The notes beneath the pieces are model-generated. The model had not been told where the DNA came from, searched no databases, and saw only the letters and a program-made list of their open reading frames with translations. Source: Candidatus Woesearchaeota archaeon (GTDB taxonomy: Archaea > Nanobdellota > Nanobdellia > Woesearchaeales > GCA-2686295). Taken from it: a stretch of 64,000 bases of DNA. Where the stretch lies: the NCBI GenBank assembly GCA_013202845.1, contig JABMPT010000005.1, positions 71,308-135,307 of the forward strand. The letters are read 5' to 3'. The translations under genes were made by a program, and so were the position numbers. Positions 12,231 through 29,897 of the stretch are shown here, in pieces (within the stretch, counting starts at the first letter, position 1; every line of letters begins with the position of its first letter).

Positions 12231-12243
12231 TTTCTATAAAAAA

Positions 12244-14554: not shown

Positions 14555-15553
14555 TTATTTTCCAACCCAACTTGGAGGCATGTTCTTTGTTACTTCAATG
14601 TTCTTGAATTGCCTGCTTTTTTTACTACCTATCTTTTTCGCCCAGTCAGCCATTCTTTTAACCCCTTCTTCTAAAGAGGTTTTTGTTTTATATCCTAAAA
14701 TCCTGCTGACCTTTGTGTGCTTAGAATGCGCGTGCATGACTTCATTCCTTGCAGCTAAATGCACTATCTTTTGATTTGAACCCATTACCTTAATGACGAT
14801 TTTTGCCAAATCGTTGACTGATCGCGGTTTATCTTCACCAATATTAAACATTTGATTGTATGCCTTCTTTACTCTTATTGATTTAGCGATTATCGGAGAA
14901 ATGTCTCCTATGTATGAAAAGCCTCTAGTCTGTTTTCCATCTCCAAATATAGTCAATGGTTTGTTCTGCATTATCTGATTCAAGAAGATTCCTGCAACAT
15001 TTCTGTACTTATCTCCAAGATTCTGTCTTTCACCGTAAACATTGTGAGGTCTGAATATTATGTAATCCAAGCCAAACATCTCATGAGCAGCTCTCAAATC
15101 AAGCTCAACAGCATACTTTGAAATTCCGTAAGGGTCCTCGGGATTTGGCACTGTCTCCTCCTTCATAGGAAGCTGGTTGGTTCCATAAACTGCGATAGAA
15201 GATGTAAACACAAAGCATTTTACATCATGTTTCACAGACTCATTAATTAGGTTTATACTCCCTAAAAGATTGTTTCTGTAGTTGAATATTCTTATGAAAT
15301 GAGATAAACCTTCGGCTGCATAAGCTGCCAAATGAAACACATATTTGAATTTATGCTTCTTGAATAAGTTTCTAATCATCTTGAAATTTAGAACGCTTCC
15401 TTTCACAAAAGCTGCTTTTTTAGGAACATTCTCTGTGAAGCCACCGCTTAAATCATCAAGAACAACCACTTTATAGCCTAATTTTATAAGTTCATCCACT
15501 ATATGAGAACCCATGAATCCTGCACCACCTGTAACTAGAACCTTCTCTTTCAT
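14555..15553 (-). CDS. NAD-dependent nucleotide-sugar epimerase/dehydratase (extended SDR; UDP-hexose or HexNAc 4-epimerase-like).
   Basis: VLVTGGAGFMGSH Rossmann motif and a YxxxK motif (YGISKYAVE). Confidence 0.8.
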   Translation of the reverse strand: MKEKVLVTGGAGFMGSHIVDELIKLGYKVVVLDDLSGGFTENVPKKAAFVKGSVLNFKMIRNLFKKHKFKYVFHLAAYAAEGLSHFIRIFNYRNNLLGSINLINESVKHDVKCFVFTSSIAVYGTNQLPMKEETVPNPEDPYGISKYAVELDLRAAHEMFGLDYIIFRPHNVYGERQNLGDKYRNVAGIFLNQIMQNKPLTIFGDGKQTRGFSYIGDISPIIAKSIRVKKAYNQMFNIGEDKPRSVNDLAKIVIKVMGSNQKIVHLAARNEVMHAHSKHTKVSRILGYKTKTSLEEGVKRMADWAKKIGSKKSRQFKNIEVTKNMPPSWVGK

Positions 15554-15595
15554 TGTGAAATAAGAGAGAATAGAACCATTTTTAAAATTAACTGT

Positions 15596-16633
15596 TTATT
15601 CAATTATTTTATAGTTATATAGAAGTTTTCTAATTTCACCCTTAGTAAGTTGACGAAGATTAGCAGAATCATATTCCTCATAGCTTCTTTTTGATTTATA
15701 TTCAGAAACAAATCCTGGCGTTATAATTGACGATCTAAGAACAAACATGTCTCTTAGTTCTTTAAGATGGTTTGTTTCTTCTTTTGTAATTAAGCATTCA
15801 CTTATTTTCTCCCCTGGTCTGACACCTATCTTCTTGATGTTCATATCTTTAGTTTTAAAACCATGTTTAGGCGCTAATTCTTCTATCATGACTTCTGCCA
15901 AGTCTATAATTCTAAGACTTTTCATTCTTAGAATAAATATTTCTTCTCCTTTCATCAAAGTTGCTGCTTTTAGAACCAAGTTAACTGCTTCAGACATGGA
16001 CATAAAGAATCTCGTCATGTCAGTGGTTGTTATTGTTACTGGCCCTCCTTCACTTATTTGTTTCTTGAAAATAGGTATCACTGAGCCATTTGAGTTTAAG
16101 ACATTACCAAACCTGACTGATGAGAACCTTGTTTTGTAATCACCATAATTCGCTGAGATTGTGAGTTTCTCACTCAGTAATTTTGTAGCACCCATTGTGT
16201 TTATAGGGTTTACTGCCTTATCAGTGCTTATAGAAATAAACTTTTTGACATTCTGTTTTCTGGCAGCATTAATCAGATTTTGTGTTCCAACAATGTTTGT
16301 GCTAACTGCCTCAAATGGATTATATTCACACAATGGAACATGTTTCAAAGCAGCTGCATGAAAAACAATGTCAACGCCTCTCATAGCCATTTCTAATCGT
16401 TCTTTATCCCTAACATCTCCAATTAGATGCCTTGTTAACTTGCTTTTTATGGCTTGGCGCATGTAAAAATGTGCAGATTCATTATTATCGAATATCCTTA
16501 TTCTTTTTGGCTTAAACGCCAAGAGTTGTTTCACTATTTCTTTACCTATTGAACCACAACCTCCTGTTACTAGAATATCCTTTCCTTGAAAGATTCTCTT
16601 AAACTTGTTTTCCGGATTGGTTTTCTTTCTCAT
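15596..16633 (-). CDS. UDP-GlcNAc 4,6-dehydratase (PseB/LegB/CapD-like).
   Basis: ILVTGGCGSIGKEIVKQL, followed by the TDKAVNPINTMGATK catalytic region typical of PseB/FlaA1/CapD. Confidence 0.75.
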   Translation of the reverse strand: MRKKTNPENKFKRIFQGKDILVTGGCGSIGKEIVKQLLAFKPKRIRIFDNNESAHFYMRQAIKSKLTRHLIGDVRDKERLEMAMRGVDIVFHAAALKHVPLCEYNPFEAVSTNIVGTQNLINAARKQNVKKFISISTDKAVNPINTMGATKLLSEKLTISANYGDYKTRFSSVRFGNVLNSNGSVIPIFKKQISEGGPVTITTTDMTRFFMSMSEAVNLVLKAATLMKGEEIFILRMKSLRIIDLAEVMIEELAPKHGFKTKDMNIKKIGVRPGEKISECLITKEETNHLKELRDMFVLRSSIITPGFVSEYKSKRSYEEYDSANLRQLTKGEIRKLLYNYKIIE

Positions 16634-16676
16634 CTAGCCGACCGAAAACATGACATATTTAAATAACTATCGTGTA

Positions 16677-17777
16677 TTAATGATAGAAATCCATCATTGA
16701 TTTTTTCACAGTAAGAACTTGCTTCTTGGTCATTTCTGGAAAGAACGGTAGAATAAGTGTTGTTTTACTTAATTTTTCTGCAACGAAAAAGTCTCCTTCC
16801 TTATATCCAAACTCTTTTCTATAGAATGGTTGTAGATGTATGGCTGGGAAGAAGTATGCTTTGCTGTGTATTGCTTTGCTTAGCAGATGAACCGCTAACT
16901 CATCTCTATCTTTTGCAGGAACTTTTATTGGAAAAACAAACCAGGTATGAGTATTGTGGCTATCGGTAACTGGTAATGTAACTTGTGGTATTTCTGCTAG
17001 TTCTTTTAAATAAAGATCTGCAACTCTTCTTCTCTCAGATATCAAATAATTTATTTTTTTTAACTGTGAAATTCCTAGAGCTGCTTGGAGATCTGTAATC
17101 CTATAGTTGTATCCTAAATGTTCGTGGGTCAACCATTGTCTACTACTTCCCCTCCCTTGATTTCTTAGACTTCTACAAGCTTCTGCTACTTGTTTATTGT
17201 TTGTCACAATCATGCCTCCTTCCCCTGTAGTTATCTGCTTATTTGGATAAAAAGCGAAAACAGCTGCGTCACCAAAAGTTCCAACTTTCTTCCCTTTGTA
17301 TTTTGCATTAATTGATTCACAAGCATCTTCTATTACTTTCAACTTATGTTTCTTTGCTATTCTCATAATTTCACCCATATCACAGCTTTGACCAAACACT
17401 TGAACTGGGAGAATAGCTTTTGTTTTTTTTGTTATTTTTTTCTCTATCTTGCTAGTGTCAATATTGAAGGTTTTCTCATCAACATCTACAAATACAGGCT
17501 TTGCTCCTTCAAATAATACACAGTTTGCTGAAGCAACAAAAGAGAAAGGAGAGGTTATTACTTCATCACCTCTTCCTATTCCTAATGCTTTTATACATAA
17601 ATGCAACCCAGAAGTTCCTGAGTTAACAGCAACAGCATGTTTTGTTCCTATAAGCTTTGCAAATAGTTCCTCAAATTCTTCAATCTTTGGACCTAAACTC
17701 AACCTTCCTGACTTCAAGACTTTCTCGACTGCTTTGATATCTTTCCTATCAATATGTGGTTTTGCTAATGGTATCAT
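16677..17777 (-). CDS. DegT/DnrJ/EryC1-family PLP-dependent sugar aminotransferase (PseC/LegC/PglE-like).
   Basis: MIPLAKPHIDRKDIKAVEKVLKSGRLSLGPKIEEFE...NSGTSGLHL. Confidence 0.85.
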   Translation of the reverse strand: MIPLAKPHIDRKDIKAVEKVLKSGRLSLGPKIEEFEELFAKLIGTKHAVAVNSGTSGLHLCIKALGIGRGDEVITSPFSFVASANCVLFEGAKPVFVDVDEKTFNIDTSKIEKKITKKTKAILPVQVFGQSCDMGEIMRIAKKHKLKVIEDACESINAKYKGKKVGTFGDAAVFAFYPNKQITTGEGGMIVTNNKQVAEACRSLRNQGRGSSRQWLTHEHLGYNYRITDLQAALGISQLKKINYLISERRRVADLYLKELAEIPQVTLPVTDSHNTHTWFVFPIKVPAKDRDELAVHLLSKAIHSKAYFFPAIHLQPFYRKEFGYKEGDFFVAEKLSKTTLILPFFPEMTKKQVLTVKKSMMDFYH

Positions 17778-18595
17778 ATACTCACCTTGTACATATTCTC
17801 CACCAACATAGCTACCGTAACAGGTCCAACTCCTCCTGGTACCGGTGTTATGAATGATGCTTTCTGTTTAACAGTTTTAAAATCCAGGTCTCCAAAAATC
17901 TTATTGTTTACTTTTGAAATACCAATATCTATCGCGACAACACCTTCTTTGACATGTTCTCCTTTAACTAAGCCAGGAACTCCTGTGGCAGATATCACAA
18001 TATCTGCATCTCTTGTGAGTAAATATATGTTTTTTGTCTTATTATTGCAAACAAAAACAGTAGCTCCTTTTCTCATCAACATCAAAGCAAGCGGTTTGCC
18101 AACTAAATCACTGTCATTTATTATACAAACATTTTTTCCTTCGACTTGAATATTATTTTCTTCTATTATTCTCATTATTCCTCTCGGCGTGCATGGACCT
18201 GCTTTATTATCATACATTATCTGGCCCAGTGTTACTGGATTCAAAAAATCAACATCTTTTTTAGGAGCTATTTCCTTTAAAACAGCTGTTTTGTTTATGC
18301 CCTCTGGTAAGGGGAGTTGTACTAGTATTCCGTCTACATCATCTGATTCATTTAATTTTCTTATAAGAGAAATCAGCTCTTTCGTAGTTGAGTTTTTGAA
18401 AAAGTATTTCTGTAATGATATTCCTGCTTCATTGCATGCTTTTTCTTTTAACTCAACATATAGATGTGATGGTTCATTATCACCAACAAGAATAACCGCT
18501 AACACAGGTTTTGTCTTCAACTCTGAGATTTTCTTCTTAGTGTTTTCTATTATTTTCCTTGCAAAGCTCTTCCCATCAAAAATTTCACAAGTCAT
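17774..18595 (-). CDS. folD: Bifunctional methylene-THF dehydrogenase / methenyl-THF cyclohydrolase FolD.
   Basis: ILVGDNEPSHLYV...ILVQLPLP...TPRGIMR...PVPGGVGPVTVAML motifs. Confidence 0.8.
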   Translation of the reverse strand: MTCEIFDGKSFARKIIENTKKKISELKTKPVLAVILVGDNEPSHLYVELKEKACNEAGISLQKYFFKNSTTKELISLIRKLNESDDVDGILVQLPLPEGINKTAVLKEIAPKKDVDFLNPVTLGQIMYDNKAGPCTPRGIMRIIEENNIQVEGKNVCIINDSDLVGKPLALMLMRKGATVFVCNNKTKNIYLLTRDADIVISATGVPGLVKGEHVKEGVVAIDIGISKVNNKIFGDLDFKTVKQKASFITPVPGGVGPVTVAMLVENMYKVSI

Positions 18596-19838
18596 TATAT
18601 ATTGGAAAATCCTCGCACAATTGTTTTACTTCTTGCTTCACTTTTAACTTATAATCCTTGCTATCCTTATTTTTCAAAGTTTTCATCATTAATTCAGCCA
18701 GAAGTTTCATTTCCGATTCTTTCATTCCTCTAGTGGTCAAACCAGCAGTGCCTATTCGTATTCCACTTGGATCAAAAGGACTTCTCTTATCATAAGGAAC
18801 CATGTTTTTGTTGACGATTATGCCAACTTCTTCCAATAAGCTTTCTGCTTCCTTTCCAGAAATATTTAGACTTGTTAAATCTGCTAAGATTAAATGATTA
18901 TCAGTTCCTCCTGAAACTAGATTCATTCCTCGATTTGTGAGTTCTTCTGCTAATGTTTTACAGTTTTTCACTATTTGTTTAGCATACTCTTTAAACTCTG
19001 GTTTTAATGCTTCTCCAAAAGCTACTGTCATACCTGCTGTGGTATGGTTGTGAGGTCCTCCTTGCATCCCTGGAAATACTGCTCTATCAATGTCTTTTGC
19101 AAATTTTTCTTTGCAGAGTATCATAGCTCCTCTTGGACCTCTTAAGGTTTTATGAGTTGTTGTAGTGATTATATCTGTGAATGGAAAGGGACTTGGATGA
19201 ACTTTGGCAGCTATTAATCCAGCTATGTGGGACATATCAACCATGCTTATTGCTCCAATTTCTTCAGCTATCTCATGAAATATCTTGAAATCAATCTCTC
19301 TTGGATAAGCGGTTGCTCCTGAAAGAATCAATTTTGGCTTTTCTTTCTTTGCCAGTTTTCTTATCTCATCATAATCAATCAAATGTGTTTTCTTATCAAC
19401 TCCATACTGTATGAATTTGTAAGTCTTCCCTGAGAAATTTATTGGATGACCATGAGTTAGATGACCTCCATGAGCGAGGTTCATTCCAAGAACTTTATCT
19501 CCATGATTTAGAACTGCAAAATATACTTCAAGATTAGCAGGTGAGCCTGAGTATGGTTGAACATTGACATGTTCTGCTCCAAATAGTTCCTTTGCTCTTT
19601 CCTGAGCAAGTATTTCTATCTCATCTACATATTTGTTTCCGCCGTAGTATCGCTTTGCAGGATATCCTTCAGAATATTTATTTGTGAAAACACTACCTGT
19701 CGCTCTTAGAACATTTGTGCTTACAAAGTTCTCTGAAGCAATAAGTCCTAAAGTACTTTGTTGTCTTTTTAGCTCATTAACTAGAATATCTGAGGCTTTC
19801 TTGTCTTTTTCTCTTAGTTTTTTATATTCCCCCTTCAT
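18585..19838 (-). CDS. glyA: Serine hydroxymethyltransferase GlyA.
   Basis: LIASENFVS, the TNKYSEGYP..RYYGG motif and the THKTLRGPRG PLP-lysine region. The start was trimmed to the internal Met (MKGEYKKL); the ORF track extends it to 19937. Confidence 0.85.
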   Translation of the reverse strand: MKGEYKKLREKDKKASDILVNELKRQQSTLGLIASENFVSTNVLRATGSVFTNKYSEGYPAKRYYGGNKYVDEIEILAQERAKELFGAEHVNVQPYSGSPANLEVYFAVLNHGDKVLGMNLAHGGHLTHGHPINFSGKTYKFIQYGVDKKTHLIDYDEIRKLAKKEKPKLILSGATAYPREIDFKIFHEIAEEIGAISMVDMSHIAGLIAAKVHPSPFPFTDIITTTTHKTLRGPRGAMILCKEKFAKDIDRAVFPGMQGGPHNHTTAGMTVAFGEALKPEFKEYAKQIVKNCKTLAEELTNRGMNLVSGGTDNHLILADLTSLNISGKEAESLLEEVGIIVNKNMVPYDKRSPFDPSGIRIGTAGLTTRGMKESEMKLLAELMMKTLKNKDSKDYKLKVKQEVKQLCEDFPIYNDL

Positions 19839-19927
19839 AAGGTGGACTACTAGTACCAGATTTATTAATCTTTCTGAAATCGAAAATTTCAGAAGCCCAT
19901 AAACTTGTTTAAGTATATTTCTGAAAT

Positions 19928-20482
19928 CTATCCACAATTCATAACTCTTTCCTCTGTGATAATTATGTCTACAGGAATATCATGTGTTTGATTCGGTAAT
20001 TCCTTGACAACTTGCTTTTCAAAAGCTAAACCTATCTTCAAAGCATTACTTATTTTTCTCAAGAATTTGTCATAATATCCTTTACCATAACCTAGTCTAT
20101 GGCCTTTTTGGTCAAATACTATGCCAGGAACTATAACAATATCAAGAGGAATTGTTTCTTCTATTGGATTAATAGGTTCTAATATCTCAAATATTCCTTT
20201 TTTTAGTTTAGCAAACCCTAGAAACTTGGTGTATTTTATCTCATCTCCAACTACATAAGGAATAAAAACTTCTTTAGTTTCACTAATTTCTGTTATTAAA
20301 GTATGTGTTTGTACTTCATTATCGATAGAGATATAACAATGAACTTTTCTTGAAGCTGTGAATTCTTCTAAGTCAAAAAGTATTTTTTTTATTTTATTAC
20401 TCTTATTAGCCACAACTTCCTTACTCAGGCTATTTCTTTTTACTAATATTTCTTGTCTAAGAGTTTGCTTAAATTGATTCAT
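19928..20482 (-). CDS. 5-formyltetrahydrofolate cyclo-ligase (MTHFS).
   Basis: C-terminal GYGKGYYDKFL matches the 5-FCL signature; length is 184 aa. Confidence 0.65.
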   Translation of the reverse strand: MNQFKQTLRQEILVKRNSLSKEVVANKSNKIKKILFDLEEFTASRKVHCYISIDNEVQTHTLITEISETKEVFIPYVVGDEIKYTKFLGFAKLKKGIFEILEPINPIEETIPLDIVIVPGIVFDQKGHRLGYGKGYYDKFLRKISNALKIGLAFEKQVVKELPNQTHDIPVDIIITEERVMNCG

Positions 20483-21140
20483 CGTTTTTTAGAAAAACTT
20501 TTTCTCCATTAACTTCTTTATACGGTAAATCTCTGGCTCCAAGAAAATATGTTGCTCTGATTCTTAGTTTCACTTCCTCTTCATTCATTTCATCTGTGAT
20601 TTTGCAAAGTTTTTGAAGTTCTTTTCTAGTATAAGGTTTTCTTTCCCAAGTCTCATTAGACTCTGGTAAACGCTTGTTTTCAATAATACACGCAAATATT
20701 TCATGAAATAGTTTTACAAGGTAATCTATTGTTCTTTCTTTTAATTTGAGAACTGTGTCATCTTCATACATCGGAAATCTAAGTACTTTTACAATTTTTC
20801 CTGAGTCAACTCTTGATATCATATAATGGCAGGTTACACCATATTCTTTATCTTTGTTATATATTGCAAAGTTATAGCATCCTATGCCAGGATATTTTGG
20901 AGGTGCAGGATGAAAGTTAATTGCTAACTTAGTTTTATTCAACAACCATTCAGGCACTATCCAAGGACAAAGAAAAGATATTACATAATCACCAAACCAA
21001 TCTTTTAGCTCTTCTGGAAATTTATCTCCAAATTCTCCTTCAAAAATTTTCAAATCTACTTCTTTTGGAATTCTTTCTTTTACAAACGTTTGTATTTCTT
21101 TACAAGCATCAGATGTTTTTGTCAGTAAAAGAATTTTCAT
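20469..21140 (-). CDS. Formyltransferase-fold enzyme (Formyl_trans_N); predicted N10-formyl-THF-dependent sugar N-formyltransferase.
   Basis: DYVISFLCPWIVPEWLLNKTKLAINFHPAPPKYPGIGCYNFAIYN...SRVDSGKIV aligns to the Fmt/PurN core (Asn-x-His ... Asp catalytic residues, SLLP-like loop). Confidence 0.55.
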   Translation of the reverse strand: MKILLLTKTSDACKEIQTFVKERIPKEVDLKIFEGEFGDKFPEELKDWFGDYVISFLCPWIVPEWLLNKTKLAINFHPAPPKYPGIGCYNFAIYNKDKEYGVTCHYMISRVDSGKIVKVLRFPMYEDDTVLKLKERTIDYLVKLFHEIFACIIENKRLPESNETWERKPYTRKELQKLCKITDEMNEEEVKLRIRATYFLGARDLPYKEVNGEKVFLKNDESI

Positions 21141-21141
21141 T

Positions 21142-22275
21142 TTAGTAGGTTATTTGTTTTTGCAATAATTTCTTGTCTATTTTTATAGATTTCAAAACTT
21201 TGATTATTCTAGGAGCTGTTTTTCCATCACCATAAGGATTCTTACATAATTTTAGTTTTTCTTTGAAACTTAAAGACATTGATTTCTTTATTGCTTTTTC
21301 TATTGAATCTTCGTTGTAACCTACATTTATAACATTAAAAGTTCTGTCTCTTCTGTTTTGTCTTGTTCCAATGTTTACAACAGGCAACTTAAAAGATGCG
21401 GCTTCTATTATTCCGCTACTGGAATTTCCAACAAGAACTTCTATGTTATTCAGTAAACTTAAATATTCATCATGAGGAATATTTTTGAATATCTTAAATT
21501 TAGGATTTTTTGAAAACTCTTTAATCTTATCTATTATTTTTCTTCCTCCTGCATCTGCATTTGGGTACACAATGATTGTTTGATAACCTAGTTCTTCTAC
21601 AGCTTTTAGAGTTTTAGAAACTTGGTTATCAGGATTATCTTCTCCTGTTACTGGATGTTGAATAACCATTAATGTTTTTTCATCGTTTAAACTTAACTTT
21701 TTGAATAATTTTTTTCTTGGAATGGTTTTATTTTTAACAATACAATCCAAGCCGGGAGCCCCAACAACATAAATTCTCCATTTATCCTCACCCATTTTTC
21801 TTATTCTTTCAGCACTATTTTCTGTGCATGGCAAATGAATATGAGACAATTTAGTGATTGAGTGACGTGAGATTTCATCAACAGTAGATGTTACTTCCCC
21901 TCCATGTAAGTGAGCTACTGGAATAGTTAAATAAGCGCCCACTATTGCAGCGCCTAACATTTCAGCTCTATCACCAAGAACTACTATTATGTCTGGTTTT
22001 GATTTCTTCACATAGATTGCTAACTTATTAATGAATTCACTCAAAAAAATAACCATTGAATTTTTATCATCTTTTTTGTAAATAGAATTTATTTTCTTAA
22101 TTTTAAATCCCTCTTGTTCTATGTCTCTATAAGTATTTCCAAAATCCTTCATTAAGTGCATGCCTGTAGCGACTAAATCTAATTTCAGATCTTTGTCTTT
22201 TTTTATTAAAAATAGCACCTCTTTCATTAAACCATAGTCAGCTCTTGTTCCAGAAACACATATTATTTTTCTCAT
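21142..22275 (-). CDS. UDP-sugar 2-epimerase (hydrolysing), NeuC/LegG-like.
   Basis: MRKIICVSGTRADYGLMKEVL...HLHGGE; non-hydrolysing/hydrolysing 2-epimerase family. Confidence 0.8.
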   Translation of the reverse strand: MRKIICVSGTRADYGLMKEVLFLIKKDKDLKLDLVATGMHLMKDFGNTYRDIEQEGFKIKKINSIYKKDDKNSMVIFLSEFINKLAIYVKKSKPDIIVVLGDRAEMLGAAIVGAYLTIPVAHLHGGEVTSTVDEISRHSITKLSHIHLPCTENSAERIRKMGEDKWRIYVVGAPGLDCIVKNKTIPRKKLFKKLSLNDEKTLMVIQHPVTGEDNPDNQVSKTLKAVEELGYQTIIVYPNADAGGRKIIDKIKEFSKNPKFKIFKNIPHDEYLSLLNNIEVLVGNSSSGIIEAASFKLPVVNIGTRQNRRDRTFNVINVGYNEDSIEKAIKKSMSLSFKEKLKLCKNPYGDGKTAPRIIKVLKSIKIDKKLLQKQITY

Positions 22276-24032
22276 TTTAAGTCATTCCAAAGAATTAATT
22301 TATCTTTTGCAATATTTTTTTTTGCGATTTTCCCTAGAACTTTGGAAATATCTTGAGGAGGTATACCTGTGCCAGGCCTCTTGATTATTATCATATCAGA
22401 AGTTATAACCGTCCCTTTTGCAATGTCTTGTTTTGCTACTAGACTTTTCTTTGCAACAACTTCTATTCTCTTCTCTGAATCAGTTGATTTTTTCTCTTCT
22501 GAACCTCTAATTATTTCTACTAAACGTATTTGCTTCACCATTTCTTTTAACTCTTTAGGTTCAAGTGATGCTTTGTGATCTGGCCCTTCCATATTTCTAT
22601 CGAGAGTAAAATGTTTCTCAATAACAACCGCACCCATAGATGCAGCAACTAAAGGAACAACTATTCCTTCTGTATGATCAGAATAACCAACTAAGCATTC
22701 TAATTCTTTTCTCATTGTTTCCATTGCTCTAAGATTTACTTCTTCATAAGGTGTTGGATAATTAGTTGTGCAATGCAATATCACTATATTATTATTTCCT
22801 TGAGATTTCATAGATTCATAAGCTTCTTTCACATCTTCCATAGTTGACATCCCTGTAGCTAGTATTATTGGCTTGTTCTTCTTTGCCATTTTAACAAGAT
22901 AAGGAATATTATTTACTTCTCCTGATCCTGCTTTGAAAGCTACAACTCCCAATTCATCTAAGAAATCAATTGAATCTTCATCAAAAGGAGTTGACAAAAA
23001 TATTAGTCCTTTTTTCTCTGCATATTCTTTCAATATTTGGTGATACTCTTCCTTTAATTCAAGTCTTTTCAACATTTCAAACTGTGTTTCTTGTTTTCCG
23101 ATATTTTTTTTCTGATATTCTGCTTGATCAGCATCTTTTGTCACTAGTTTTTCAGCTTTGAAAGTCTGGAATTTAACAGCATCAACTCCTGCATCTGCAG
23201 CAACATCAATAAGTTTCTTGGCAATTTCTAAATCACCATTGTGATTCACTCCTGCTTCAGCTATCATAAAACAAGGACTGTTATTGTCAATTGTTTTATT
23301 TCCAATCTTAATTTCTGGAAGATCTTCTTTTTCAATTAAAGATTCTGCAATCTTAAAATCAATTTCCTCATCAATATCTAAAGATTCATGAGAAGACATA
23401 ACTAAAGGAGTAACTCTATCTCCCCAAACATAATTCTCTGAGTTCATGATTAGTTCTTTATTAAAAATATATACTGAACCATTTATCAAATAAATAGCAT
23501 TATCTTTTTGGTCTTGTTTTCTTATTTTTGAAAAATCATTTTTTGAAATGAATTTGAGTTCATCTTTTTCTATTCTTAAGAACCAATTCGATGGCATATC
23601 TGCTTTCTTAACAGAAATCATCATATCTGAATTTGATTTCATAAATTTATTTATAGCTTTAGAAAGTAAATTTGAAGATCTTAAAGGAGATGTTGGTTGT
23701 AGCATAATTACAGAATCAAAGTCATAGTTTTCTTCTTCCAAAACAAATACTAGGTGCTTGAGAACATCCAAAGAAGAGGATTTATCTGTTGCTAACTCTT
23801 TTGATCTCATTATTACGTCCGCACCATATCTTCGAGAAATTCCTGCAATCTCTTTAGAATCCGTTGAAACTATAGTTCTACTTATTTCTTTACAACCAAG
23901 AGATTGTTCAATAGAATAAGCAATCAAAGGTTTTCCATTCAAGTATTTAATATTCTTTTTGGGGACTCTCTTACTTCCTCCTCTGGCCGGTATTATTGCT
24001 ATTACTTTTTTCATTAACTCACTTCCATACAC
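22272..24032 (-). CDS. Fusion of an acylneuraminate-type cytidylyltransferase (NeuA/LegF/PseF-like) with a nonulosonic-acid synthase (NeuB/LegI/PseI-like).
   Basis: N-terminal VIAIIPARGGSKRVPKKNIKYLNGKPLI (CMP-NeuAc synthetase motif). Middle PCFMIAEAGVNHNGDLEIAKKLIDVAADAGVDAVKFQTF (NeuB TIM barrel). C-terminal SAF domain. Length is 586 aa. Confidence 0.8.
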   Translation of the reverse strand: MYGSELMKKVIAIIPARGGSKRVPKKNIKYLNGKPLIAYSIEQSLGCKEISRTIVSTDSKEIAGISRRYGADVIMRSKELATDKSSSLDVLKHLVFVLEEENYDFDSVIMLQPTSPLRSSNLLSKAINKFMKSNSDMMISVKKADMPSNWFLRIEKDELKFISKNDFSKIRKQDQKDNAIYLINGSVYIFNKELIMNSENYVWGDRVTPLVMSSHESLDIDEEIDFKIAESLIEKEDLPEIKIGNKTIDNNSPCFMIAEAGVNHNGDLEIAKKLIDVAADAGVDAVKFQTFKAEKLVTKDADQAEYQKKNIGKQETQFEMLKRLELKEEYHQILKEYAEKKGLIFLSTPFDEDSIDFLDELGVVAFKAGSGEVNNIPYLVKMAKKNKPIILATGMSTMEDVKEAYESMKSQGNNNIVILHCTTNYPTPYEEVNLRAMETMRKELECLVGYSDHTEGIVVPLVAASMGAVVIEKHFTLDRNMEGPDHKASLEPKELKEMVKQIRLVEIIRGSEEKKSTDSEKRIEVVAKKSLVAKQDIAKGTVITSDMIIIKRPGTGIPPQDISKVLGKIAKKNIAKDKLILWNDLK

Positions 24033-25275
24033 GATGTCTTAAAACCCATTTATCATTTGCTTTTTTCCACAAATGAGGTGATCTGAATTTATCGGCAACT
24101 TCAAAAAACTCTTTTTCACTCATATCAATATACTCCAAAAACTCTTTGAAGTATCTTTTTGGGAATTCTTCATCAAATTTCTTAACTAAAGCAACAGCTT
24201 CTTCTCTTGTAATCTTTTCATTACGAACTTCTTGAGAAGCATCATAAGTTGCTCTACCAATTCCAAATTTAATTAATGTAGTCCAATAATGGAATGGATC
24301 AGTTTTGTCATCTATGCTGTTGTATTTTGAATATGTACCCTCAGTTCGTTGATCATTCGCCTGAAAATCCACTTTATCAACAGCAAAATAATAAGCTTCT
24401 TGAGGATCCCATTTAATATAATATCCCATATAATGAACCTGAATACCAGCTTTTTCTATCTCATTAGGATCGAGTGGCAAATACGGGACAAGATCAACTC
24501 TTTCAAGTCCATGTTTTTCAATTAAATCACTAACTTTTACTCCGAAAATAAACATATCATTAAAATTTTCACCACAGTGATATTTTTGAGAGCGTAAAGC
24601 AGTTACGGTATCTTGAATAGGATTTCCATACTCGGCTTCATTTTCACCATAAAAAACTAATGGGACACCATATTTCAATGCGAAACATGCACCAATGTTT
24701 TTTTGACCCAATATAAAAGGTTGAAAAGGATGCAATAAATTAGTATAAGCCAATTTTGTTAATAATCTATGTACTTTACCATTTGGTGTAAATAAAATAT
24801 TATCAAATCCGCCTTTATGTACCCAATTAATAAAATAATTCCATCCATAGGGAGTGTACATATGAGGAGCCCAAGTGACAGTAAGAGGATGCATATCGTA
24901 TTTATACTTTAAAATCCAAGAAGCCATAATACTATCTTTTCCGCCACTTCCTGATACAATACAATCATATCTTCCATCTGTTCTTCGGTATTTATCACAT
25001 AGTTTTTTTAATTCTTTTTCACGTTTTTTCCAATCAATATTATGATTTTTTTTATCAGTTACTTTACAGGCATCACAAACTCCATCCTCATCAAAATTTA
25101 TAGTTTCTTTTTTAGTTTTAATATTATGTTTAAACTCAACTGCTGAATTAGGCCTCTGATTTGAAATAACACATCTCTTACAAAATTTAACTTCCCTTGG
25201 CAGACCATAGAGAACTGAAACATTATCAGTTTTTTCTTCTTTATATTCCTTTGGGTCAACATTTGATGTTACCAT
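24019..25275 (-). CDS. N-acetyl sugar amidotransferase (WbuX/AglX/PseA family; PP-loop ATPase).
   Basis: SGGKDS PP-loop, N-terminal Cys-rich region (CKRC...CDAC), length 418 aa. It sits adjacent to a HisH/HisF paralog. Confidence 0.75.
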   Translation of the reverse strand: MVTSNVDPKEYKEEKTDNVSVLYGLPREVKFCKRCVISNQRPNSAVEFKHNIKTKKETINFDEDGVCDACKVTDKKNHNIDWKKREKELKKLCDKYRRTDGRYDCIVSGSGGKDSIMASWILKYKYDMHPLTVTWAPHMYTPYGWNYFINWVHKGGFDNILFTPNGKVHRLLTKLAYTNLLHPFQPFILGQKNIGACFALKYGVPLVFYGENEAEYGNPIQDTVTALRSQKYHCGENFNDMFIFGVKVSDLIEKHGLERVDLVPYLPLDPNEIEKAGIQVHYMGYYIKWDPQEAYYFAVDKVDFQANDQRTEGTYSKYNSIDDKTDPFHYWTTLIKFGIGRATYDASQEVRNEKITREEAVALVKKFDEEFPKRYFKEFLEYIDMSEKEFFEVADKFRSPHLWKKANDKWVLRHRVWK

Positions 25276-26652
25276 TTAGACTACCCCCAAAAATCTCTTC
25301 AAAATTTTTAGTCCTAAATAATCACATTTTTCAGGATGAAACTGGGTTCCATATACATTGCCTCTCTTTACAACAGAACAAAATGATTGGTTGCCATATT
25401 CTGATTCTGCAAGAATATCTTCATTATCTTTAGGAACACACCTAAATGAGTGAACAAAGTACATTAACGAGTTGTTAGACACACCTTCAAGAATAGTGTT
25501 TTGCCATGATTTGTTTTTAGGAATAACTATTTCACTCCAGCCAACATGAGGCAATCTAATCCTTTTACTTATTTTTTCAGGTTCTAATTTCTTTACAACA
25601 CCTGGTATTACTCCCAATCCTTCATGGACCCCAAATTCTTCTCCTTTCTCAAATAATAACTGCATACCTAAACATATCCCTAATAAAGGCTTTCCTGAGT
25701 TTACATAATCCCTTACAGCTTCAATGAGTCTATTCAACCTAAAGTTGTTCATACCTTCACTGAAAGATCCTACTCCAGGAATAATAAGCATCTCAGAATT
25801 ATTTATTTCATCAGGATTTTTAACAAATCTATATTCATAACCGAGACTTTCTATAGCAGATTTTAAACTATACAAGTTTCCAAGACCATAATCAACAATT
25901 GAAACTGTCTTTTTATCATTCTTATTATTCTTAATATCATCTTTTAAATCTTCTCTAATTCTGATATCATTAACTCCTTGTTCAAGTAAATATTTTTTAA
26001 TTTTTTCAATAGTAGTCTCATCATAATGCAGGACTGAAGCAAAACTCACAGCATCACATTTAGTTTCTTCAATGCATTTCTTAATATCTTCTATACTTCC
26101 AGCACCACCAGAAGCAATAATAGGAACATCAACAGAGTCAGTAATCTGTTTTATTAGTTCCAAGTCATATCCTTTTTTTAAACCATCTTTATCAACAGCA
26201 GTTACCAATAACTCTCCAGCTCCAAGCTCAACAAGTTTTTTTGCCCATTCAACTGCATCCAAACCAGTCTTTTCTCGACCACAATCAATATATACCTCCC
26301 ATTTTCCTAGGCCAGATTTCTTTGCTTCAATAGAACCAACAATACATTGAGTTCCAAACATTTGTGAAGCTTCTTTAATAAAATTAGGATTTCTAGTTGC
26401 GGCGGTATTTATTGCTACTTTGTCAGCTCCCGCTCTTAAAACTTGCCTGATATCCTCAAGGTTTCTTATCCCACCTCCAACAGTCATTGGAACAAACATT
26501 CCAAGCGCAACTGTTTCTTCAATTATATGCAAAAGATTATTTCTTTCATATAAACTTGCTACTATATCAATATACAATATTTCATCAGCTCCTTGCTCAA
26601 AATACTTTTTTGCAAGTTCTGCCGGATCACCAACTACTCTTAATCCTTCCAT
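25276..26652 (-). CDS. Fused HisF-like cyclase and HisH-like glutamine amidotransferase (WbuZ-WbuY / AglZ-AglY paralog). It supplies ammonia for acetamidino formation.
   Basis: N-terminal HisF motifs (VVGDPAELAKKY...DEILYIDI...GGGIR...VAINTAA). C-terminal HisH triad region (GICLGMQLL...H.E). Length is 458 aa. Confidence 0.8.
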   Translation of the reverse strand: MEGLRVVGDPAELAKKYFEQGADEILYIDIVASLYERNNLLHIIEETVALGMFVPMTVGGGIRNLEDIRQVLRAGADKVAINTAATRNPNFIKEASQMFGTQCIVGSIEAKKSGLGKWEVYIDCGREKTGLDAVEWAKKLVELGAGELLVTAVDKDGLKKGYDLELIKQITDSVDVPIIASGGAGSIEDIKKCIEETKCDAVSFASVLHYDETTIEKIKKYLLEQGVNDIRIREDLKDDIKNNKNDKKTVSIVDYGLGNLYSLKSAIESLGYEYRFVKNPDEINNSEMLIIPGVGSFSEGMNNFRLNRLIEAVRDYVNSGKPLLGICLGMQLLFEKGEEFGVHEGLGVIPGVVKKLEPEKISKRIRLPHVGWSEIVIPKNKSWQNTILEGVSNNSLMYFVHSFRCVPKDNEDILAESEYGNQSFCSVVKRGNVYGTQFHPEKCDYLGLKILKRFLGVV

Positions 26653-26737: not shown

Positions 26738-27703
26738 TTATGTAATGTTTAAGTTTTCAACATTATGTCTTTTCATGAAATCAAATAATAATAAGTGAGC
26801 AAGAAAAGTTTCCTCAGCCAAAGGTAACATTGGTTTTTGATTATTCACAATGTCATTAACAATTTTTTCTGTTATTTGACTTGTGTATAGAATTGGAAAC
26901 TGCTTCTTAGCTACTTTTTGATTTTTATCAATAATTACAATTTTTTGCTCCATTTCAAATACTGTTATTAATTCTTTTTCTGTTGATATTTGTATTGAGT
27001 TAGTCGATTCTTTTCCAGATATATTGATTGTGCATGGATATTTGTCATTAACTACAAAAGTCATACTACCTTCCATATCTTGAAATCCTTTTCTTTTTGA
27101 ATCAAATACAGATATGAGTTGAGAATCCAATATTTCATATTTTTTCATGTTTAAGAACCAAGACACTGTTTCTAAATAATGTATTCCATTGCAAGCAAAT
27201 CCTACAGACCTTTCAAAGTTGATATTAAAGGTAAATTTTGATCTGTTCTTTATTTTTGATAACAATTCTTGATATCCTGGATATGTGTGATTAGAAAAAT
27301 TGCAATAAATAGGAACCTTATTAGCTTTACTTAAAGAGAGTATATTTTTTATAACTTTCTCAGTTTGAGATAACGGTTTTTCTGATATTATTGCTTTTGG
27401 TTTTAATGAAATTACTTTAGATAGAATATCAAGTCTTGCATCTGCAGTTGTTGATACTATTATTATTGTATTATTATCAATCTTAGGTAATATGCTAGAT
27501 AAATTGGTTGTCATGTATAGGCCTTTAAAATTTAATTTATTTTCATCAATAAATTTTTTGGTAGAATCTATTGATTTTTGAAACTTGTCATGGCAAAACA
27601 GTTCAAAAGCCATATTCAAATTCGATACTGATTGTAAATGTCTTTTTCCAATACTTCCAGTTCCAATAATCATGATTTTCAACATTTTAGTCATCATATC
27701 CAC
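26738..27703 (-). CDS. Gfo/Idh/MocA-family NAD(P)-dependent oxidoreductase.
   Basis: MLKIMIIGTGSIGKRHL Rossmann motif and an EKPL motif. Confidence 0.6.
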   Translation of the reverse strand: MDMMTKMLKIMIIGTGSIGKRHLQSVSNLNMAFELFCHDKFQKSIDSTKKFIDENKLNFKGLYMTTNLSSILPKIDNNTIIIVSTTADARLDILSKVISLKPKAIISEKPLSQTEKVIKNILSLSKANKVPIYCNFSNHTYPGYQELLSKIKNRSKFTFNINFERSVGFACNGIHYLETVSWFLNMKKYEILDSQLISVFDSKRKGFQDMEGSMTFVVNDKYPCTINISGKESTNSIQISTEKELITVFEMEQKIVIIDKNQKVAKKQFPILYTSQITEKIVNDIVNNQKPMLPLAEETFLAHLLLFDFMKRHNVENLNIT

Positions 27704-28646
27704 ATATTTTATTTATAATTTCAAACATTTTCGTTTGTTCGTTAATATTTGGAAGTTCTTTTAACCCTTTTAAGTTTTCCAATGCAGCCTTTGTCATTTT
27801 TAATATCCCTGGCTTAAAGTTGTCATCATCTGAATCTGATAATGATATTTCAGACCAGTTAAATTGGTTTTTTTCACAAAATTGTAAAGTTTCTAAAGGA
27901 GAAAGCTTATATCTGCCCTTAATTGTAGATATTTCAACATTCCATCTTCCTGCTCCATCCCAAGAAGAAAAATAACTAAAAATACATTTACTTGTTTCTC
28001 CACAGCCACTAAATATGTTTCCAGATGGATGTTTTTCCCAATATCCATCGATTTTTGTAAAAATATTTTTAGGAATTCCTATTAAATAAAAAGCAAGGTC
28101 AATTACATGAATAGAATTTGCTATTCCCCATCTAGCCACAACTTTTTTTGTTTCTTTCTGATTGTCTAGAACATCTTTTTGTCTTTCTGTAAAGTCAAAA
28201 AAACAACCTGTAATATTCTCATTCTGAAGGATAGATTTTAGCTTAATTACTGAGCTATAGAACCTTCTATTAAGAGCATATCTAATAATGACTTTGTCGT
28301 TAATTTGTTTTTTTATTTCTTTCATTTCTTTTAGATCTACAGATCCTGGTTTTTCGACTAGTATATTCTTAAATCCTTTCTTTGCACAGTTTATTGTTAT
28401 ATTTTTTAATGATGGAATTGCAGAAGCTACTATAACTAAATCTATTTTTTCAGGATCAAAGTTTGAAAGAGACTCAATACTATTTCCCATAGATTCAAAG
28501 CCATATTTGTCTGCAGTTTTCCTTGCATTTTCAAGGTTTCTACTAATAACAGTAACTTTTGCACCTAGTTCTTTCAAAACCTTAAGGTATTCCTCCGCCA
28601 TATAACTTGAACCAAACACAATTACATTTTTTATCATTTTTTCCAT
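27687..28646 (-). CDS. Gfo/Idh/MocA-family oxidoreductase (second paralog).
   Basis: NVIVFGSSYMAEEYL...ILVEKP. Confidence 0.55.
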   Translation of the reverse strand: MEKMIKNVIVFGSSYMAEEYLKVLKELGAKVTVISRNLENARKTADKYGFESMGNSIESLSNFDPEKIDLVIVASAIPSLKNITINCAKKGFKNILVEKPGSVDLKEMKEIKKQINDKVIIRYALNRRFYSSVIKLKSILQNENITGCFFDFTERQKDVLDNQKETKKVVARWGIANSIHVIDLAFYLIGIPKNIFTKIDGYWEKHPSGNIFSGCGETSKCIFSYFSSWDGAGRWNVEISTIKGRYKLSPLETLQFCEKNQFNWSEISLSDSDDDNFKPGILKMTKAALENLKGLKELPNINEQTKMFEIINKICGYDD

Positions 28647-28739
28647 TTTTATCTATTTAGTAAATGTTCGTTCTAATTTTTTCCCTCAATTTTATTTATT
28701 AATTCATAAAGATTGTCTTTTGATCTTAAGTTTACTTTT

Positions 28740-29783
28740 TTAACTATTCTCTTTGAATTGCTTTAATAATCCATTTTTAATATTTTTGTGTGCAATATTA
28801 CTATTTTTAATAATACTCAACCTACCACCACATTCATTACATATTCGCATTTTATGTGAATCACCGTTTATATGTAATTTTCGCACTCTCTCAAGAATAG
28901 GACCAAGCCAAATATCCTTTATGGATGTTTCTTTAGCATTACCCAATTTAAATTTACCATAAGTATCACCACAACAAAGTCTATACTCACCATCCCACAT
29001 AATAAAAAGACGTCTCCAAGGCTGATTACACTTAAAATCCTTTGCAATTACAATATCTGTAAACTTAGTATCATCCCTTTCATTCTCTTCTTCTAAAGCA
29101 ATATCGTCTGTATATGGTCCCCAAAATTCAACATATTTTTTTACATGTTCCTCTATGTTCTTAATTGATTTTAATAGAACCATTTGTATACGAATAATTG
29201 GTTTATTTATGTTTAATTCCTTTTTGAGTTTATTAAGTCTAACAATATTTTTAAGCACAGTATTAAAATTACCACCAATACGTATAGATTCGTAGAAATC
29301 CTTTGTATACCCGTCAATCGAACAAATAATTTTATCCATGCCAGCATCAATTAATGCGCGAGCCATTTTTTCATTTAATAGATTCACATTAGTGTTAAAC
29401 ATAACTTCCAAAATACCCTTCACTTTTGCATATTTAACCATATCAGCTATGCGTGGATGCAAAAGAGGTTCGCCACGATACATTAGTTTAATAGAACACA
29501 ATCCATTTTCAGCACCCTCATCTATTAGTTTAGTATATAAATCCCAATCCATATATCCAGGTTTTGGAGGTTTAAACGACTGAAAACACATCTTGCATTT
29601 TAAATTACAAGAACTATTTGCTTCAATATCTAAATGAATAGGAAAGGAACCTACAATGCAATTTTCAGGATTTTCATTCCATTTTCTACGATATTCCAAG
29701 TATTCAGGGGAATAGTCTTGTTTTGATGTTTTAATTTCATTATAAGTCGAAAAATTCCTTTTTTCTTTAATTTCTGCCATCAA
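28740..29783 (-). CDS. Radical SAM enzyme with C-terminal SPASM/twitch Cys cluster.
   Basis: ANSSCNLKCKMCFQ (CX3CX2C). C-terminal CNQPW...CCGD...CNECGG cysteines. Confidence 0.7.
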   Translation of the reverse strand: MMAEIKEKRNFSTYNEIKTSKQDYSPEYLEYRRKWNENPENCIVGSFPIHLDIEANSSCNLKCKMCFQSFKPPKPGYMDWDLYTKLIDEGAENGLCSIKLMYRGEPLLHPRIADMVKYAKVKGILEVMFNTNVNLLNEKMARALIDAGMDKIICSIDGYTKDFYESIRIGGNFNTVLKNIVRLNKLKKELNINKPIIRIQMVLLKSIKNIEEHVKKYVEFWGPYTDDIALEEENERDDTKFTDIVIAKDFKCNQPWRRLFIMWDGEYRLCCGDTYGKFKLGNAKETSIKDIWLGPILERVRKLHINGDSHKMRICNECGGRLSIIKNSNIAHKNIKNGLLKQFKENS

Positions 29784-29897
29784 TTATACCTCAAAGAAAA
29801 TTAATAGTCAATAACTTATAAATGTTTCGAGAAAGAATTGTTTTTATCGACGAGCATTTGTAAAAACTAAGTCTACTTTGAAAATATATAAAATAAA

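Follow-up and report, generated by a model that had tools for sequence, protein, structure and literature searches.

Legionaminic acid (Leg) is made from UDP-linked sugars in Bacillus subtilis (SpsM/C/D/G/E/F) and in Legionella pneumophila (PglF/E/D-like enzymes with NeuC/B/A), and through a GDP variant in Campylobacter jejuni (LegB/C/H/G/I/F). Here we analyse a 64-kb stretch of contig JABMPT010000005.1 (hereafter the window) from a Candidatus Woesearchaeota archaeon, a member of the DPANN archaea, in which a cluster of minus-strand genes follows the same order of chemistry. On balance we favour the view that this cluster is a Leg-type operon making a CMP-activated 5,7-diamino-3,5,7,9-tetradeoxy-nonulosonate in which one acetyl group is replaced by formyl. 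It resembles the B. subtilis pathway in the catalytic triad of its dehydratase, which is shared with SpsM, and in its NeuB-type synthase, for which SpsE is the best solved match. Unlike the UDP-Leg pathways, it has a formyltransferase in place of the N-acetyltransferase, a synthase fused to its CMP-sugar synthetase, an amidotransferase set, a folate module and a DPANN host. The pathway type is known; what is new is the substitution of a formyltransferase for the acetyltransferase, together with its own supply of formyl-tetrahydrofolate (formyl-THF), in a legionaminic-type operon of a DPANN archaeon.

Documented cases of nonulosonic acids in archaea are very few, and in the literature searched we found nothing relevant on nonulosonic or legionaminic acid in DPANN archaea or Woesearchaeota. 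In Halorubrum sp. PV6, 5-N-formyl-legionaminic acid caps an AglB-dependent S-layer N-glycan, and the leg cluster contains a predicted formyltransferase (PMC6137143). The Halorubrum cluster and the window are alike in being archaeal and in their legionaminic-type sugar, known in one case and predicted in the other, with a single formyl group. However, Halorubrum encodes LegF and LegI as two proteins and has NeuD/LegH acetyltransferases, its formyl group is reported at N5 and its cluster is not reported to contain folate genes (PMC6137143), whereas the logic of the window points to a formyl group at N7.

A 7-N-formyl group is documented for pseudaminic acid (Pse), Pse5Ac7Fo being a known natural sugar. 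PseJ (PDB 6ci2/6ci4), a formyltransferase of a nonulosonate pathway, acts instead of the acetyltransferase PseH, so that the sugar is formylated at N7. This enzyme is of the Pse series and of another formyltransferase subfamily, matching the window enzyme with ~31 bits over residues 51–152 of the latter, and we know of no folate genes in the PseJ cluster. In the literature searched we found no mention of 7-N-formyl legionaminic acid and no description of a 5-acetimidoyl-7-formyl legionaminic-type acid.

The original prediction for this DNA, made without database searches, had identified a 4,6-dehydratase, a DegT aminotransferase, a NeuC-type epimerase and a fused cytidylyltransferase–synthase as the core of a 5,7-diamino-nonulosonate pathway. 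The open reading frames (ORFs) lie where it had placed them, all on the minus strand, and this core logic is present. It omitted the FolD, SHMT, MTHFS and formyltransferase genes, which occupy a third of the interval that it described (17774–21140), and the upstream WbuX and HisF–HisH genes. Because of the formyltransferase and folate module, the amidotransferase set and the lack of an acetyltransferase, the expected product shifts from a di-N-acetyl sugar to an N-formyl, and probably N-acetimidoyl, sugar.

A predicted sugar 4-N-formyltransferase

The 223-residue product of the gene downstream of neuC matches PF00551 (score 53, cutoff 26.1), and the PurN and Fmt models stay under their cutoffs. 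Its top sequence match in the PDB, over residues 28–220, is VioF (4yfv), the 4-N-formyltransferase of dTDP-4-amino-4,6-dideoxyglucose. The Asn-His-Asp triad (N75, H77 and D112) is invariant in 31 homologues. We modelled the protein with AlphaFold2 (AF2; predicted local distance difference test score (pLDDT) 95.4, predicted template modelling score (pTM) 0.90), and the top 18 Foldseek matches of this model are all sugar 4-N-formyltransferases. The closest structures are VioF, Rv3404c, WbtJ and WbkC, whose acceptors are 4-amino-4,6-dideoxyhexoses; they rank ahead of 3-N-formyltransferases, ArnA and Fmt. With this fold and triad and a small subdomain at its C terminus, and lacking both tRNA-binding and PurN-specific features, the protein very probably belongs to the sugar N-formyltransferases of the 4-N type.

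The window enzyme is like VioF (from Providencia alcalifaciens O30), Rv3404c, WbtJ and WbkC in fold and size class (TM-score ~0.72–0.78) and in its triad, but shares 18–25% identity with them. Those enzymes act on dTDP- or GDP-sugars that lack a 2-acetamido group, whereas a UDP-2-acetamido sugar would be expected as the substrate here. The family of ~220-residue formyltransferases to which it belongs (P0121–P0240) comprises 373 database proteins at E ≤ 1e-3, labelled in public sources as hypothetical protein, methionyl-tRNA formyltransferase or phosphoribosylglycinamide formyltransferase.

We searched the whole window with tblastn and, for the 60 non-nested ORFs that reach 100 residues, with Pfam, and found neither an acetyltransferase (hexapeptide or GNAT) nor a PIG-L deacetylase. 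The formyltransferase is the sole acyl-transfer enzyme of the operon. We compared the arrangement with that of other loci, given here by L numbers. In L005 a hexapeptide acetyltransferase lies between NeuC and DegT, the slot filled in the window by the formyltransferase and folate genes. The formyltransferase family shares an operon with DegT and dehydratase genes in L090, L091, L092 and L093, and stands directly beside DegT in L090–L092. L091 (Pseudodesulfovibrio) is a bare trio of formyltransferase, PglF-like dehydratase and DegT, and L090 and L093 likewise have this formyltransferase without an acetyltransferase. The assignment of the enzyme and this comparative context together suggest that it formylates the 4-amino group of the hexose, which would become N7 of the nonulosonate.

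A different formyl route, with a PIG-L protein and a ~250-residue two-domain formyltransferase, is found in L002, L007 and L089 and is lacking in the window. This route matches a deacetylase/formyltransferase cluster of Candidatus Kuenenia stuttgartiensis, in which formylated Leg-type sugars were detected at the CMP level and linked to the cluster (SugarBase preprint, bioRxiv 10.64898/2026.04.20.719630). Kuenenia and these three loci share with the window the association of formylation with a Leg-related cluster, and the three loci also carry FolD and MTHFS. Unlike the window, they combine PIG-L and the ~250-residue formyltransferase with a retained acetyltransferase, which would fit deacetylation followed by formylation at the other nitrogen.

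Folate genes within the operon

Serine hydroxymethyltransferase (SHMT), FolD and MTHFS are encoded between the formyltransferase and DegT genes, with overlapping reading frames. All three proteins are full-length members of their families; for FolD, all NCBIfam models score under their equivalog cutoffs and both Pfam domains are above their gathering thresholds. The frame of SHMT is open upstream as far as a TTG at 19937. From HisF–HisH to DegT the genes abut or overlap by 4–14 nt, the single exception being an 89-nt gap before SHMT, and the NeuC-type gene overlaps the fusion gene by 4 nt. This tight spacing is as expected of a single transcription unit. The operon extends over approximately 14555–26652 and probably runs on to 32595 (Table 1).

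SHMT transfers a one-carbon unit from serine to THF to give methylene-THF, which FolD converts through methenyl-THF to 10-formyl-THF, and MTHFS rescues 5-formyl-THF. In the operon these enzymes could form a closed cycle with the formyltransferase, whose transfer of the formyl group would give back THF. Among 92 distinct nonulosonate loci, 6 of the 24 with a formyltransferase have folate genes, whereas the 68 without one have none (Fisher p = 2e-4). The loci are related to one another, and the formyltransferase itself served to retrieve some of them; this counts against the association, in that p overstates their independence and is indicative only. The sets differ in order and composition: MTHFS and FolD in L002 and L089, SHMT and FolD in L093, FolD alone in L094 and all three in the window. 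L007 encodes a 466-residue FolD–MTHFS fusion (11666–13066) directly between its CSS–NeuB fusion gene (CSS, CMP-sialic acid synthetase) and its formyltransferase gene. Three of the folate-bearing loci have a taxon name (L002, L089 and the window), and all three come from Woesearchaeota or Nanoarchaeota. No folate genes were present in 80 loci from species-representative genomes, mostly bacterial, including those with a formyltransferase. The folate module is thus a more distinctive feature of the operon than its fused enzyme.

The halves of the operon have different relatives. The part from the formyltransferase through MTHFS, FolD, DegT and the dehydratase to the 332-residue short-chain dehydrogenase/reductase (SDR) is syntenic with L089 at 67–81% identity. 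WbuX and the HisF–HisH protein are closest to those of L090 (73% for WbuX and 68% for the HisF part, but just 40% for the HisH part), and the CSS domain has ~50% identity at most to the sequences that we fetched. On these identities the operon is of mosaic origin.

Both of these related loci carry a second ulosonic-acid-like module beside the Leg-type cluster (L089, 2127–5999; L090, 15368–20663), which is absent from the window. It encodes a NeuB without a SAF domain, a 251-residue cytidylyltransferase, a GFO/IDH/MocA protein and a short-chain dehydrogenase, together with a cupin in L089 or, in L090, SIS and AP-endonuclease-fold proteins.

A fused CMP-sugar synthetase and nonulosonate synthase

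The minus-strand ORF at 22272–24032 had been described as a 586-residue protein with a CSS-like domain, a NeuB barrel and a SAF domain. The Pfam models proposed as a check match all three: CTP_transf_3 (PF02348, 102.1 against a cutoff of 22.6), NeuB (PF03102, 338 bits) and SAF (PF08666, 54.8 bits). The open frame does extend over 586 codons from a GTG at 24032, but the protein probably starts at the ATG at 24014 (580 residues), which lies 4 nt past the WbuX stop codon and has GGAAGTGAG upstream. We favour this start because of its sequence context and because the protein is 580 residues long in NCBI.

The junction between the domains is continuous and in frame, with no stop codon, ambiguous base or remnant start codon. 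The C terminus of the CSS domain (…DFKIAESLIEKE) passes directly to a native NeuB N terminus (IKIGNKTI…), leaving a linker of at most ~5–8 residues. Three independent assemblies contain this fused ORF in identical form, namely those of JGI (contig Ga0335112_10378553), NCBI (NQU98283.1) and Logan, and it is therefore not an assembly artefact.

The CSS domain aligns over its full length with Vibrio cholerae CMAS (6ifd, 2e-37) and Neisseria meningitidis CSS (1eyr, 7e-25). The concern that it might be a remnant lacking the CTP-binding Arg and Lys is allayed by the retention of the equivalents of Arg12, Lys21, the QPTSPLR motif (Q104 onwards) and the DIDxxxD motif (D209/D211 of 1eyr) of the N. meningitidis enzyme. 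These catalytic residues are invariant or nearly so across 36 fused homologues. The NeuB part passes the NeuB/LegI-type model TIGR03569 (480.9, cutoff 399.65) and stays below the cutoff of the PseI model TIGR03586 (317.3, cutoff 340.25). It is far from the KDO-8-P and DAHP synthases, the grouping that would have undermined the assignment, with 31.7 bits on the DAHP synthase model against a cutoff of 267.75. Its top PDB matches, aligned end to end, are B. subtilis SpsE (1vli) and N. meningitidis NeuB (1xuu); the metal ligands H215 and H236 of the latter correspond to H453 and H474 of the fusion and are invariant in the same 36 homologues. Judged by its residues and domains, the fusion is real and catalytically complete.

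An AF2 model of the fusion has a mean pLDDT of 90.4 and a pTM of 0.65, with a dip in pLDDT at residues 231–240. Both domains are confidently folded in this model and their mutual orientation is undefined, although two domains that are each obligate dimers are beyond the reach of a monomer model. Fusion had been proposed to channel the free nonulosonate straight to its CMP form; a fixed geometry between the domains gains no support from this pTM or from the existence of both domain orders among natural fusions.

The fusion is unusual relative to characterised systems, as the original prediction stated, but not among database sequences. Fused proteins account for 42 of the best 120 clusters at 90% identity, with labels that include Woesearchaeota, Staskawiczbacteria, Thermoplasmata and Methanomassiliicoccales, and for at least 44 collinear representatives at 50% identity among the top 150 of an exhaustive search. 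By contrast, among 80 species-representative genomes with the closest NeuB relatives just 3 have a true fusion, all of them metagenome-assembled genomes (MAGs; Thermoplasmata, Pirellulales and Limnocylindrales). Many others, including Clostridium tepidiprofundi, have neuA, neuB and neuC in the same order with 4-nt overlaps, an arrangement in which neuA and neuB are one indel away from fusion. Apparent fusions in a cultured Clostridium and many bacterial phyla, matched over residues 8–585, were rejected when a single-ORF test and an ORF listing resolved them into separate neuA and neuB genes that overlap by 4 nt. In the literature searched we found no described CSS–NeuB (NeuA–NeuB) fusion, though database proteins with this architecture are numerous.

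In a neighbour-joining tree built from NeuB domains, the protein of the window is nested within unfused NeuB proteins with which it shares 71–74% identity; for its closest fused relative, identity is 64% over NeuB and 50% over CSS. By parsimony there are approximately nine switches between the fused and unfused states on this tree, which carries no support values, so that 'several' is the safe reading. Reverse-order NeuB–CSS fusions also exist. Thus, the fusion is not unique: it is a recurrent, uncharacterised minority architecture of several origins, in a pattern that fits the repeated merging of co-expressed neighbours and not one channel-centred invention. Other fusions known in such pathways, the mammalian GNE epimerase/kinase and the Leptospira NeuB–phosphatase (PMC3438082), likewise unite consecutive or neighbouring steps in a single ORF but have different partners.

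NeuB is found naturally fused to NeuC, DegT, a PglD-like acetyltransferase, a methyltransferase, a radical S-adenosylmethionine (SAM) domain, a two-domain formyltransferase, a second NeuB and CSS in either order (P0005, P0028, P0034, P0381, P0388, P0403, P0407, P0410, P0414 and P0437; L093, 7785–9986). P0437 is a natural formyltransferase–NeuB fusion. Such proteins provide many 'Rosetta-stone' links to the tailoring of nonulosonates. NCBI labels the window protein as N-acetylneuraminate synthase, a label that can conceal a second catalytic domain, and a natural fused enzyme of this kind could serve one-pot synthesis of CMP-nonulosonates.

Sugar configuration and amidation

The 345-residue dehydratase is a member of the PseB/Pen/PglF family and not, as had also been suggested, LegB-like: it scores 322.7 on the PseB model TIGR03589 (cutoff 407.75) and 71 on the LegB model TIGR04180 (cutoff 475), reaching neither cutoff. 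Its PDB matches rank 6bwc first, followed by PseB (2gn4), CapE and PglF; we take 6bwc to be B. thuringiensis Pen, although its PDB title reads just 'CapD'. The T-x9-M-x3-K triad of the enzyme (STDKAVNPINTMGATK) matches the SpsM triad described in PMC7439481. In a complementation experiment, Pen plus Pal feeds the Leg pathway with a gluco-configured keto-sugar (PMC7439481), and the Pen-like match of the dehydratase is therefore compatible with Leg. We also tried to distinguish a retaining (Leg) from an inverting (Pse) dehydratase by the triad and the PDB ranking, which was not decisive. A Met-containing triad occurs both in retaining PglF and in inverting CapE.

The DegT protein likewise falls below the cutoffs of both subtype models (PseC, 363.6 against 423.5; LegC, 293.6 against 420). 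Subtyping by its closest solved structures was uninformative: perosamine synthetases and others came first, and PseC (2fn6) and the C. jejuni aminotransferase 1o61, presumably PglE, were equidistant. The hydrolase had been predicted to be NeuC-like and not PseG-like, and it is a clear member of the NeuC/LegG family (TIGR03568, 439.1 against a cutoff of 235.9) that falls short of the non-hydrolysing WecB model (113.4, cutoff 210.15). The best match of the 332-residue SDR is Thermotoga maritima GalE (4zrm, 7.7e-61) and the second is Pal (6bwl, 2e-43), so it may act as a UDP-hexose 4-epimerase or else together with the dehydratase, as its Pal-like partner. It is kept beside the dehydratase only in L089, with 81% identity, and is absent from L002, L005, L007 and L093. 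Taken together, the NeuC-type hydrolase, the NeuB/LegI-type synthase and its match to SpsE favour the legionaminic family.

Upstream of the fusion gene, WbuX and the HisF–HisH protein make up the WbuX/WbuY/WbuZ amidation system, with WbuX accompanied by HisH-like and HisF-like partners. The HisF–HisH protein passes the HisH model TIGR01855 (212.9, cutoff 105.4) and remains below the WbuZ (TIGR03572, 253.3 against 299.7), hisF (274.7 against 294.55) and AglZ/HisF2 acetamidino-family (197 against 310) models. Related systems are WbpG/HisH2/HisF2 and, in C. jejuni, PseA and PtmG; in the window, unlike these systems, HisF and HisH are fused into one protein of 458 residues. A 5-acetimidoyl group is likely because this set is associated with the conversion of N-acetyl to N-acetimidoyl groups, and we infer that the N-acetyl group is probably converted in this way.

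Proposed pathway and alternatives

The operon would act as follows. The 345-residue SDR would 4,6-dehydrate UDP-GlcNAc, DegT would transaminate the product at C4, and the VioF-like enzyme would formylate the 4-amine from 10-formyl-THF. The NeuC-type enzyme would then strip UDP and epimerise C2, the NeuB/SAF domain would join the resulting 6-deoxy-mannose derivative with phosphoenolpyruvate (PEP), and the CSS domain would activate the nonulosonate with CTP. WbuX, with ammonia supplied by HisF–HisH, would probably turn the remaining N-acetyl group into acetimidoyl, giving a Leg5Am7Fo-type product with a calculated mass of 319.14 Da (320.12 Da if left as 5Ac7Fo). To regenerate the formyl donor, SHMT would load THF from serine, FolD would oxidise and hydrolyse methylene-THF to 10-formyl-THF, and MTHFS would bring 5-formyl-THF, whether a dead-end product or scavenged, back into the pool. 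A BFO_1060-like transferase would then use the CMP-sugar, and AglB would attach the glycan.

Several observations weigh against this reading. L089 and L092 pair the formyltransferase with a hexapeptide acetyltransferase, so that the relationship is not always one of simple replacement, and an acetyltransferase could lie outside the window. For the dehydratase, the aminotransferase and the CSS domain alike, the top-scoring models are those of the Pse pathway, in each case below the cutoff (for the CSS domain, PseF TIGR03584, 156.7 against 205.7), 6bwc is the closest solved structure to the dehydratase, and the Leg configuration is therefore tentative. No model in the libraries separates LegI from N-acetylneuraminic acid (Neu5Ac) synthase. 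The folate genes could also meet housekeeping needs, and all of the support is genomic or computational.

The same enzymes could instead make two products, with the dehydratase, DegT and formyltransferase yielding a bacillosamine-type UDP-2-acetamido-4-formamido-2,4,6-trideoxyhexose and NeuC with the fusion yielding CMP-Neu5Ac. The Pseudodesulfovibrio trio in L091, which has no NeuB nearby, would suit such a division, as would the blindness of TIGR03569 and TIGR03568 to the distinction between Neu5Ac and Leg and the NCBI name of the fused protein. We nevertheless find it quite improbable, since the genes for the formyltransferase and the folate enzymes stand between those of NeuC and DegT, with stop and start codons that overlap, and the block of NeuC, acyltransferase, DegT and dehydratase is repeated in L002, L005, L007 and L093. 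A DegT gene accompanies the closest NeuB relatives in 58 of 80 loci, several fused homologues are labelled N,N'-diacetyllegionaminate synthase by JGI, and the best solved NeuB match, SpsE, comes from a Leg pathway. A second possibility keeps the logic of the pathway and changes the stereoisomer, the 345- and 332-residue SDRs acting as a Pen/Pal-like pair that sets a different C5/C4 configuration, as in pseudaminic, 4-epi- or 8-epi-legionaminic or acinetaminic-like acids. Its support comes from the top-ranking PseB, PseC and PseF models, the ranking of 6bwc and Pal (6bwl) for the two SDRs and the conservation of the pair in L089. However, the three Pse models are all below cutoff, no PseG-type (MurG-like) hydrolase is present and the synthase failed the PseI model where the hydrolase passed that of NeuC. 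The 332-residue SDR is moreover most similar to GalE and is missing from four of the loci compared, and Pen with Pal can itself feed Leg synthesis (PMC7439481). We regard another stereoisomer as unlikely.

The folate genes might also have come to lie in the operon by chance, as housekeeping one-carbon genes. All three families are universal housekeeping enzymes, a single genome region was examined and other folate-dependent enzymes may exist in the MAG, and L090, a Woesearchaeota locus with a formyltransferase, lacks folate genes within 10 kb. Set against this, the linkage recurs in six loci in varied orders and subsets, always with a formyltransferase and in none of the loci that lack one, and in the window the folate frames overlap between the formyltransferase and DegT; chance placement is in our view an unlikely account. 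As for the fused ORF, many bacteria have neuA and neuB in the same order with a 4-nt overlap that a single indel would merge, and a frameshift or assembly error could in principle have produced it. The agreement of the three assemblies, a junction free of start or stop remnants and dozens of fused homologues with both domains under purifying selection leave this explanation effectively refuted, with a negligible chance of being correct.

For the Leg-type reading, a more far-reaching proposal, which we offer as speculation and would not expect to hold in full, is that a DPANN archaeon with a reduced genome retains a minimal folate cycle chiefly or solely for the formylation of a surface sugar. 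The cycle would travel as a 'serine to N-formyl' module and yield a 5-acetimidoyl-7-formyl legionaminic-type acid by way of the fused synthase/activase. The in-operon folate cycle is a testable case of cofactor-supply genes recruited into a glycan cluster, and the locus gives a handle on the purpose of folate metabolism in organisms with almost no biosynthesis. It predicts an AglB-type glycan capped by a modified sialic-acid-like sugar, which bears on the contact of episymbionts with hosts and viruses.

Genomic setting

The window is a glycosylation island of ~31% G+C, and the operon lies inside a long array of minus-strand genes (Table 1). The wider window also encodes a flippase-like protein and many glycosyltransferases, and the AglB/STT3 oligosaccharyltransferase is the probable user of the finished glycan.

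Table 1. Features of the nonulosonate operon and associated glycosylation genes (window coordinates; scores followed by model cutoffs where given)
Feature	Length (residues)	Position	Strand	Basis
HisF–HisH fusion (WbuZ/WbuY-like glutamine amidotransferase)	458	25276..26652	-	PF00977 and PF00117 matches
WbuX-family N-acetyl sugar amidotransferase	418	24019..25275	-	TIGR03573, 359.7 (cutoff 203.2)
Fused CMP-nonulosonate synthetase/nonulosonate synthase	580	22272..24014	-	Pfam and NCBIfam domains
CSS/NeuA-like domain of fusion	residues ~7–238	23319..24014	-	PF02348; alignment to 6ifd and 1eyr
NeuB TIM barrel and SAF of fusion	residues ~239–586	22272..23318	-	TIGR03569, PF03102, PF08666
NeuC/LegG-type hydrolysing UDP-sugar 2-epimerase	377	21142..22275	-	TIGR03568
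Predicted sugar 4-N-formyltransferase, VioF-like	223	20469..21140	-	PF00551; AF2/Foldseek
5-formyl-THF cyclo-ligase (MTHFS)	184	19928..20482	-	TIGR02727, 168.2 (cutoff 84.9)
SHMT, from ATG (JGI call)	417	18585..19838	-	NF000586, 612.1 (cutoff 335)
FolD (methylene-THF dehydrogenase/methenyl-THF cyclohydrolase)	273	17774..18595	-	PF02882, 190 bits; PF00763, 121 bits
DegT-family sugar 4-aminotransferase	366	16677..17777	-	PF01041, 438 bits
Polysacc_synt_2 UDP-GlcNAc 4,6-dehydratase	345	15596..16633	-	PF02719, 365.8 bits
GalE-like SDR, last gene of operon	332	14555..15553	-	4zrm and 6bwl matches
Accessory tailoring genes: two GFO/IDH/MocA oxidoreductases, radical SAM/SPASM protein, SAM methyltransferase		26738..30890	-	Pfam, NCBIfam
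Candidate nonulosonate glycosyltransferase	536	30985..32595	-	BFO_1060-family match below cutoff
AglB/STT3 oligosaccharyltransferase	953	4377..7238	-	PF02516, 173.5 bits; STT3-PglB core domain

The C terminus of the 536-residue protein at the upstream end of the array matches the NCBIfam BFO_1060-family glycosyltransferase model with 53.9 bits, under the cutoff of 200, and a sequence search of the PDB gave no match. BFO_1060 is homologous to the Pse/Leg transferases of Tannerella forsythia (PMC5420450). Homologues of ~525–583 residues adjoin nonulosonate clusters in L005, L007, L089 and L090, and the protein is a reasonable candidate for an archaeal nonulosonate transferase.

B12-binding radical SAM proteins, radical SAM/SPASM proteins and SAM methyltransferases recur by the nonulosonate clusters of such uncultivated archaea, in the window and in L002, L005, L007, L089 and L090; C-methylation or other tailoring of the sugar is a possible role. 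In the window they include the radical SAM/SPASM protein (28740–29783, minus strand) and a B12-binding radical SAM protein on the plus strand (32709–34259). An ATP-cone ribonucleotide reductase is encoded beside a cob(I)alamin adenosyltransferase (45762–48896, minus strand), and this pair, together with the B12-binding radical SAM gene, hints at a dependence on scavenged cobalamin.

Other genes of the island may also contribute to surface glycans. At 193–2803 (minus strand), a PEP mutase (TIGR02320, 394 against a cutoff of 319) with a cytidylyltransferase-like domain fused at its N terminus precedes another CTP_transf_like protein and a transferase of the LicD family, in what looks like a module for phosphonate (for example, aminoethylphosphonate) decoration of the same glycans. 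A 575-residue NodU-like carbamoyltransferase lies among the glycosyltransferases (9846–11573, minus strand), suggesting O-carbamoylated sugars. Two adjacent proteins of 470 and 492 residues (53675–56553, minus strand) have no Pfam match at 1e-5.

The window also contains archaeal housekeeping genes, encoding tRNA-splicing endonuclease, FEN1, Hjc and NFACT. Its FEN1 and its formyltransferase each match, at 100% identity, NCBI proteins of a MAG labelled Candidatus Woesearchaeota archaeon. No tRNA genes were found in the window. Its sole Rfam match is a stand-alone 5S rRNA (41851–41966, plus strand; 73 bits), with no adjoining 16S or 23S rRNA, which lies next to a gene for an RsmB-type methyltransferase.

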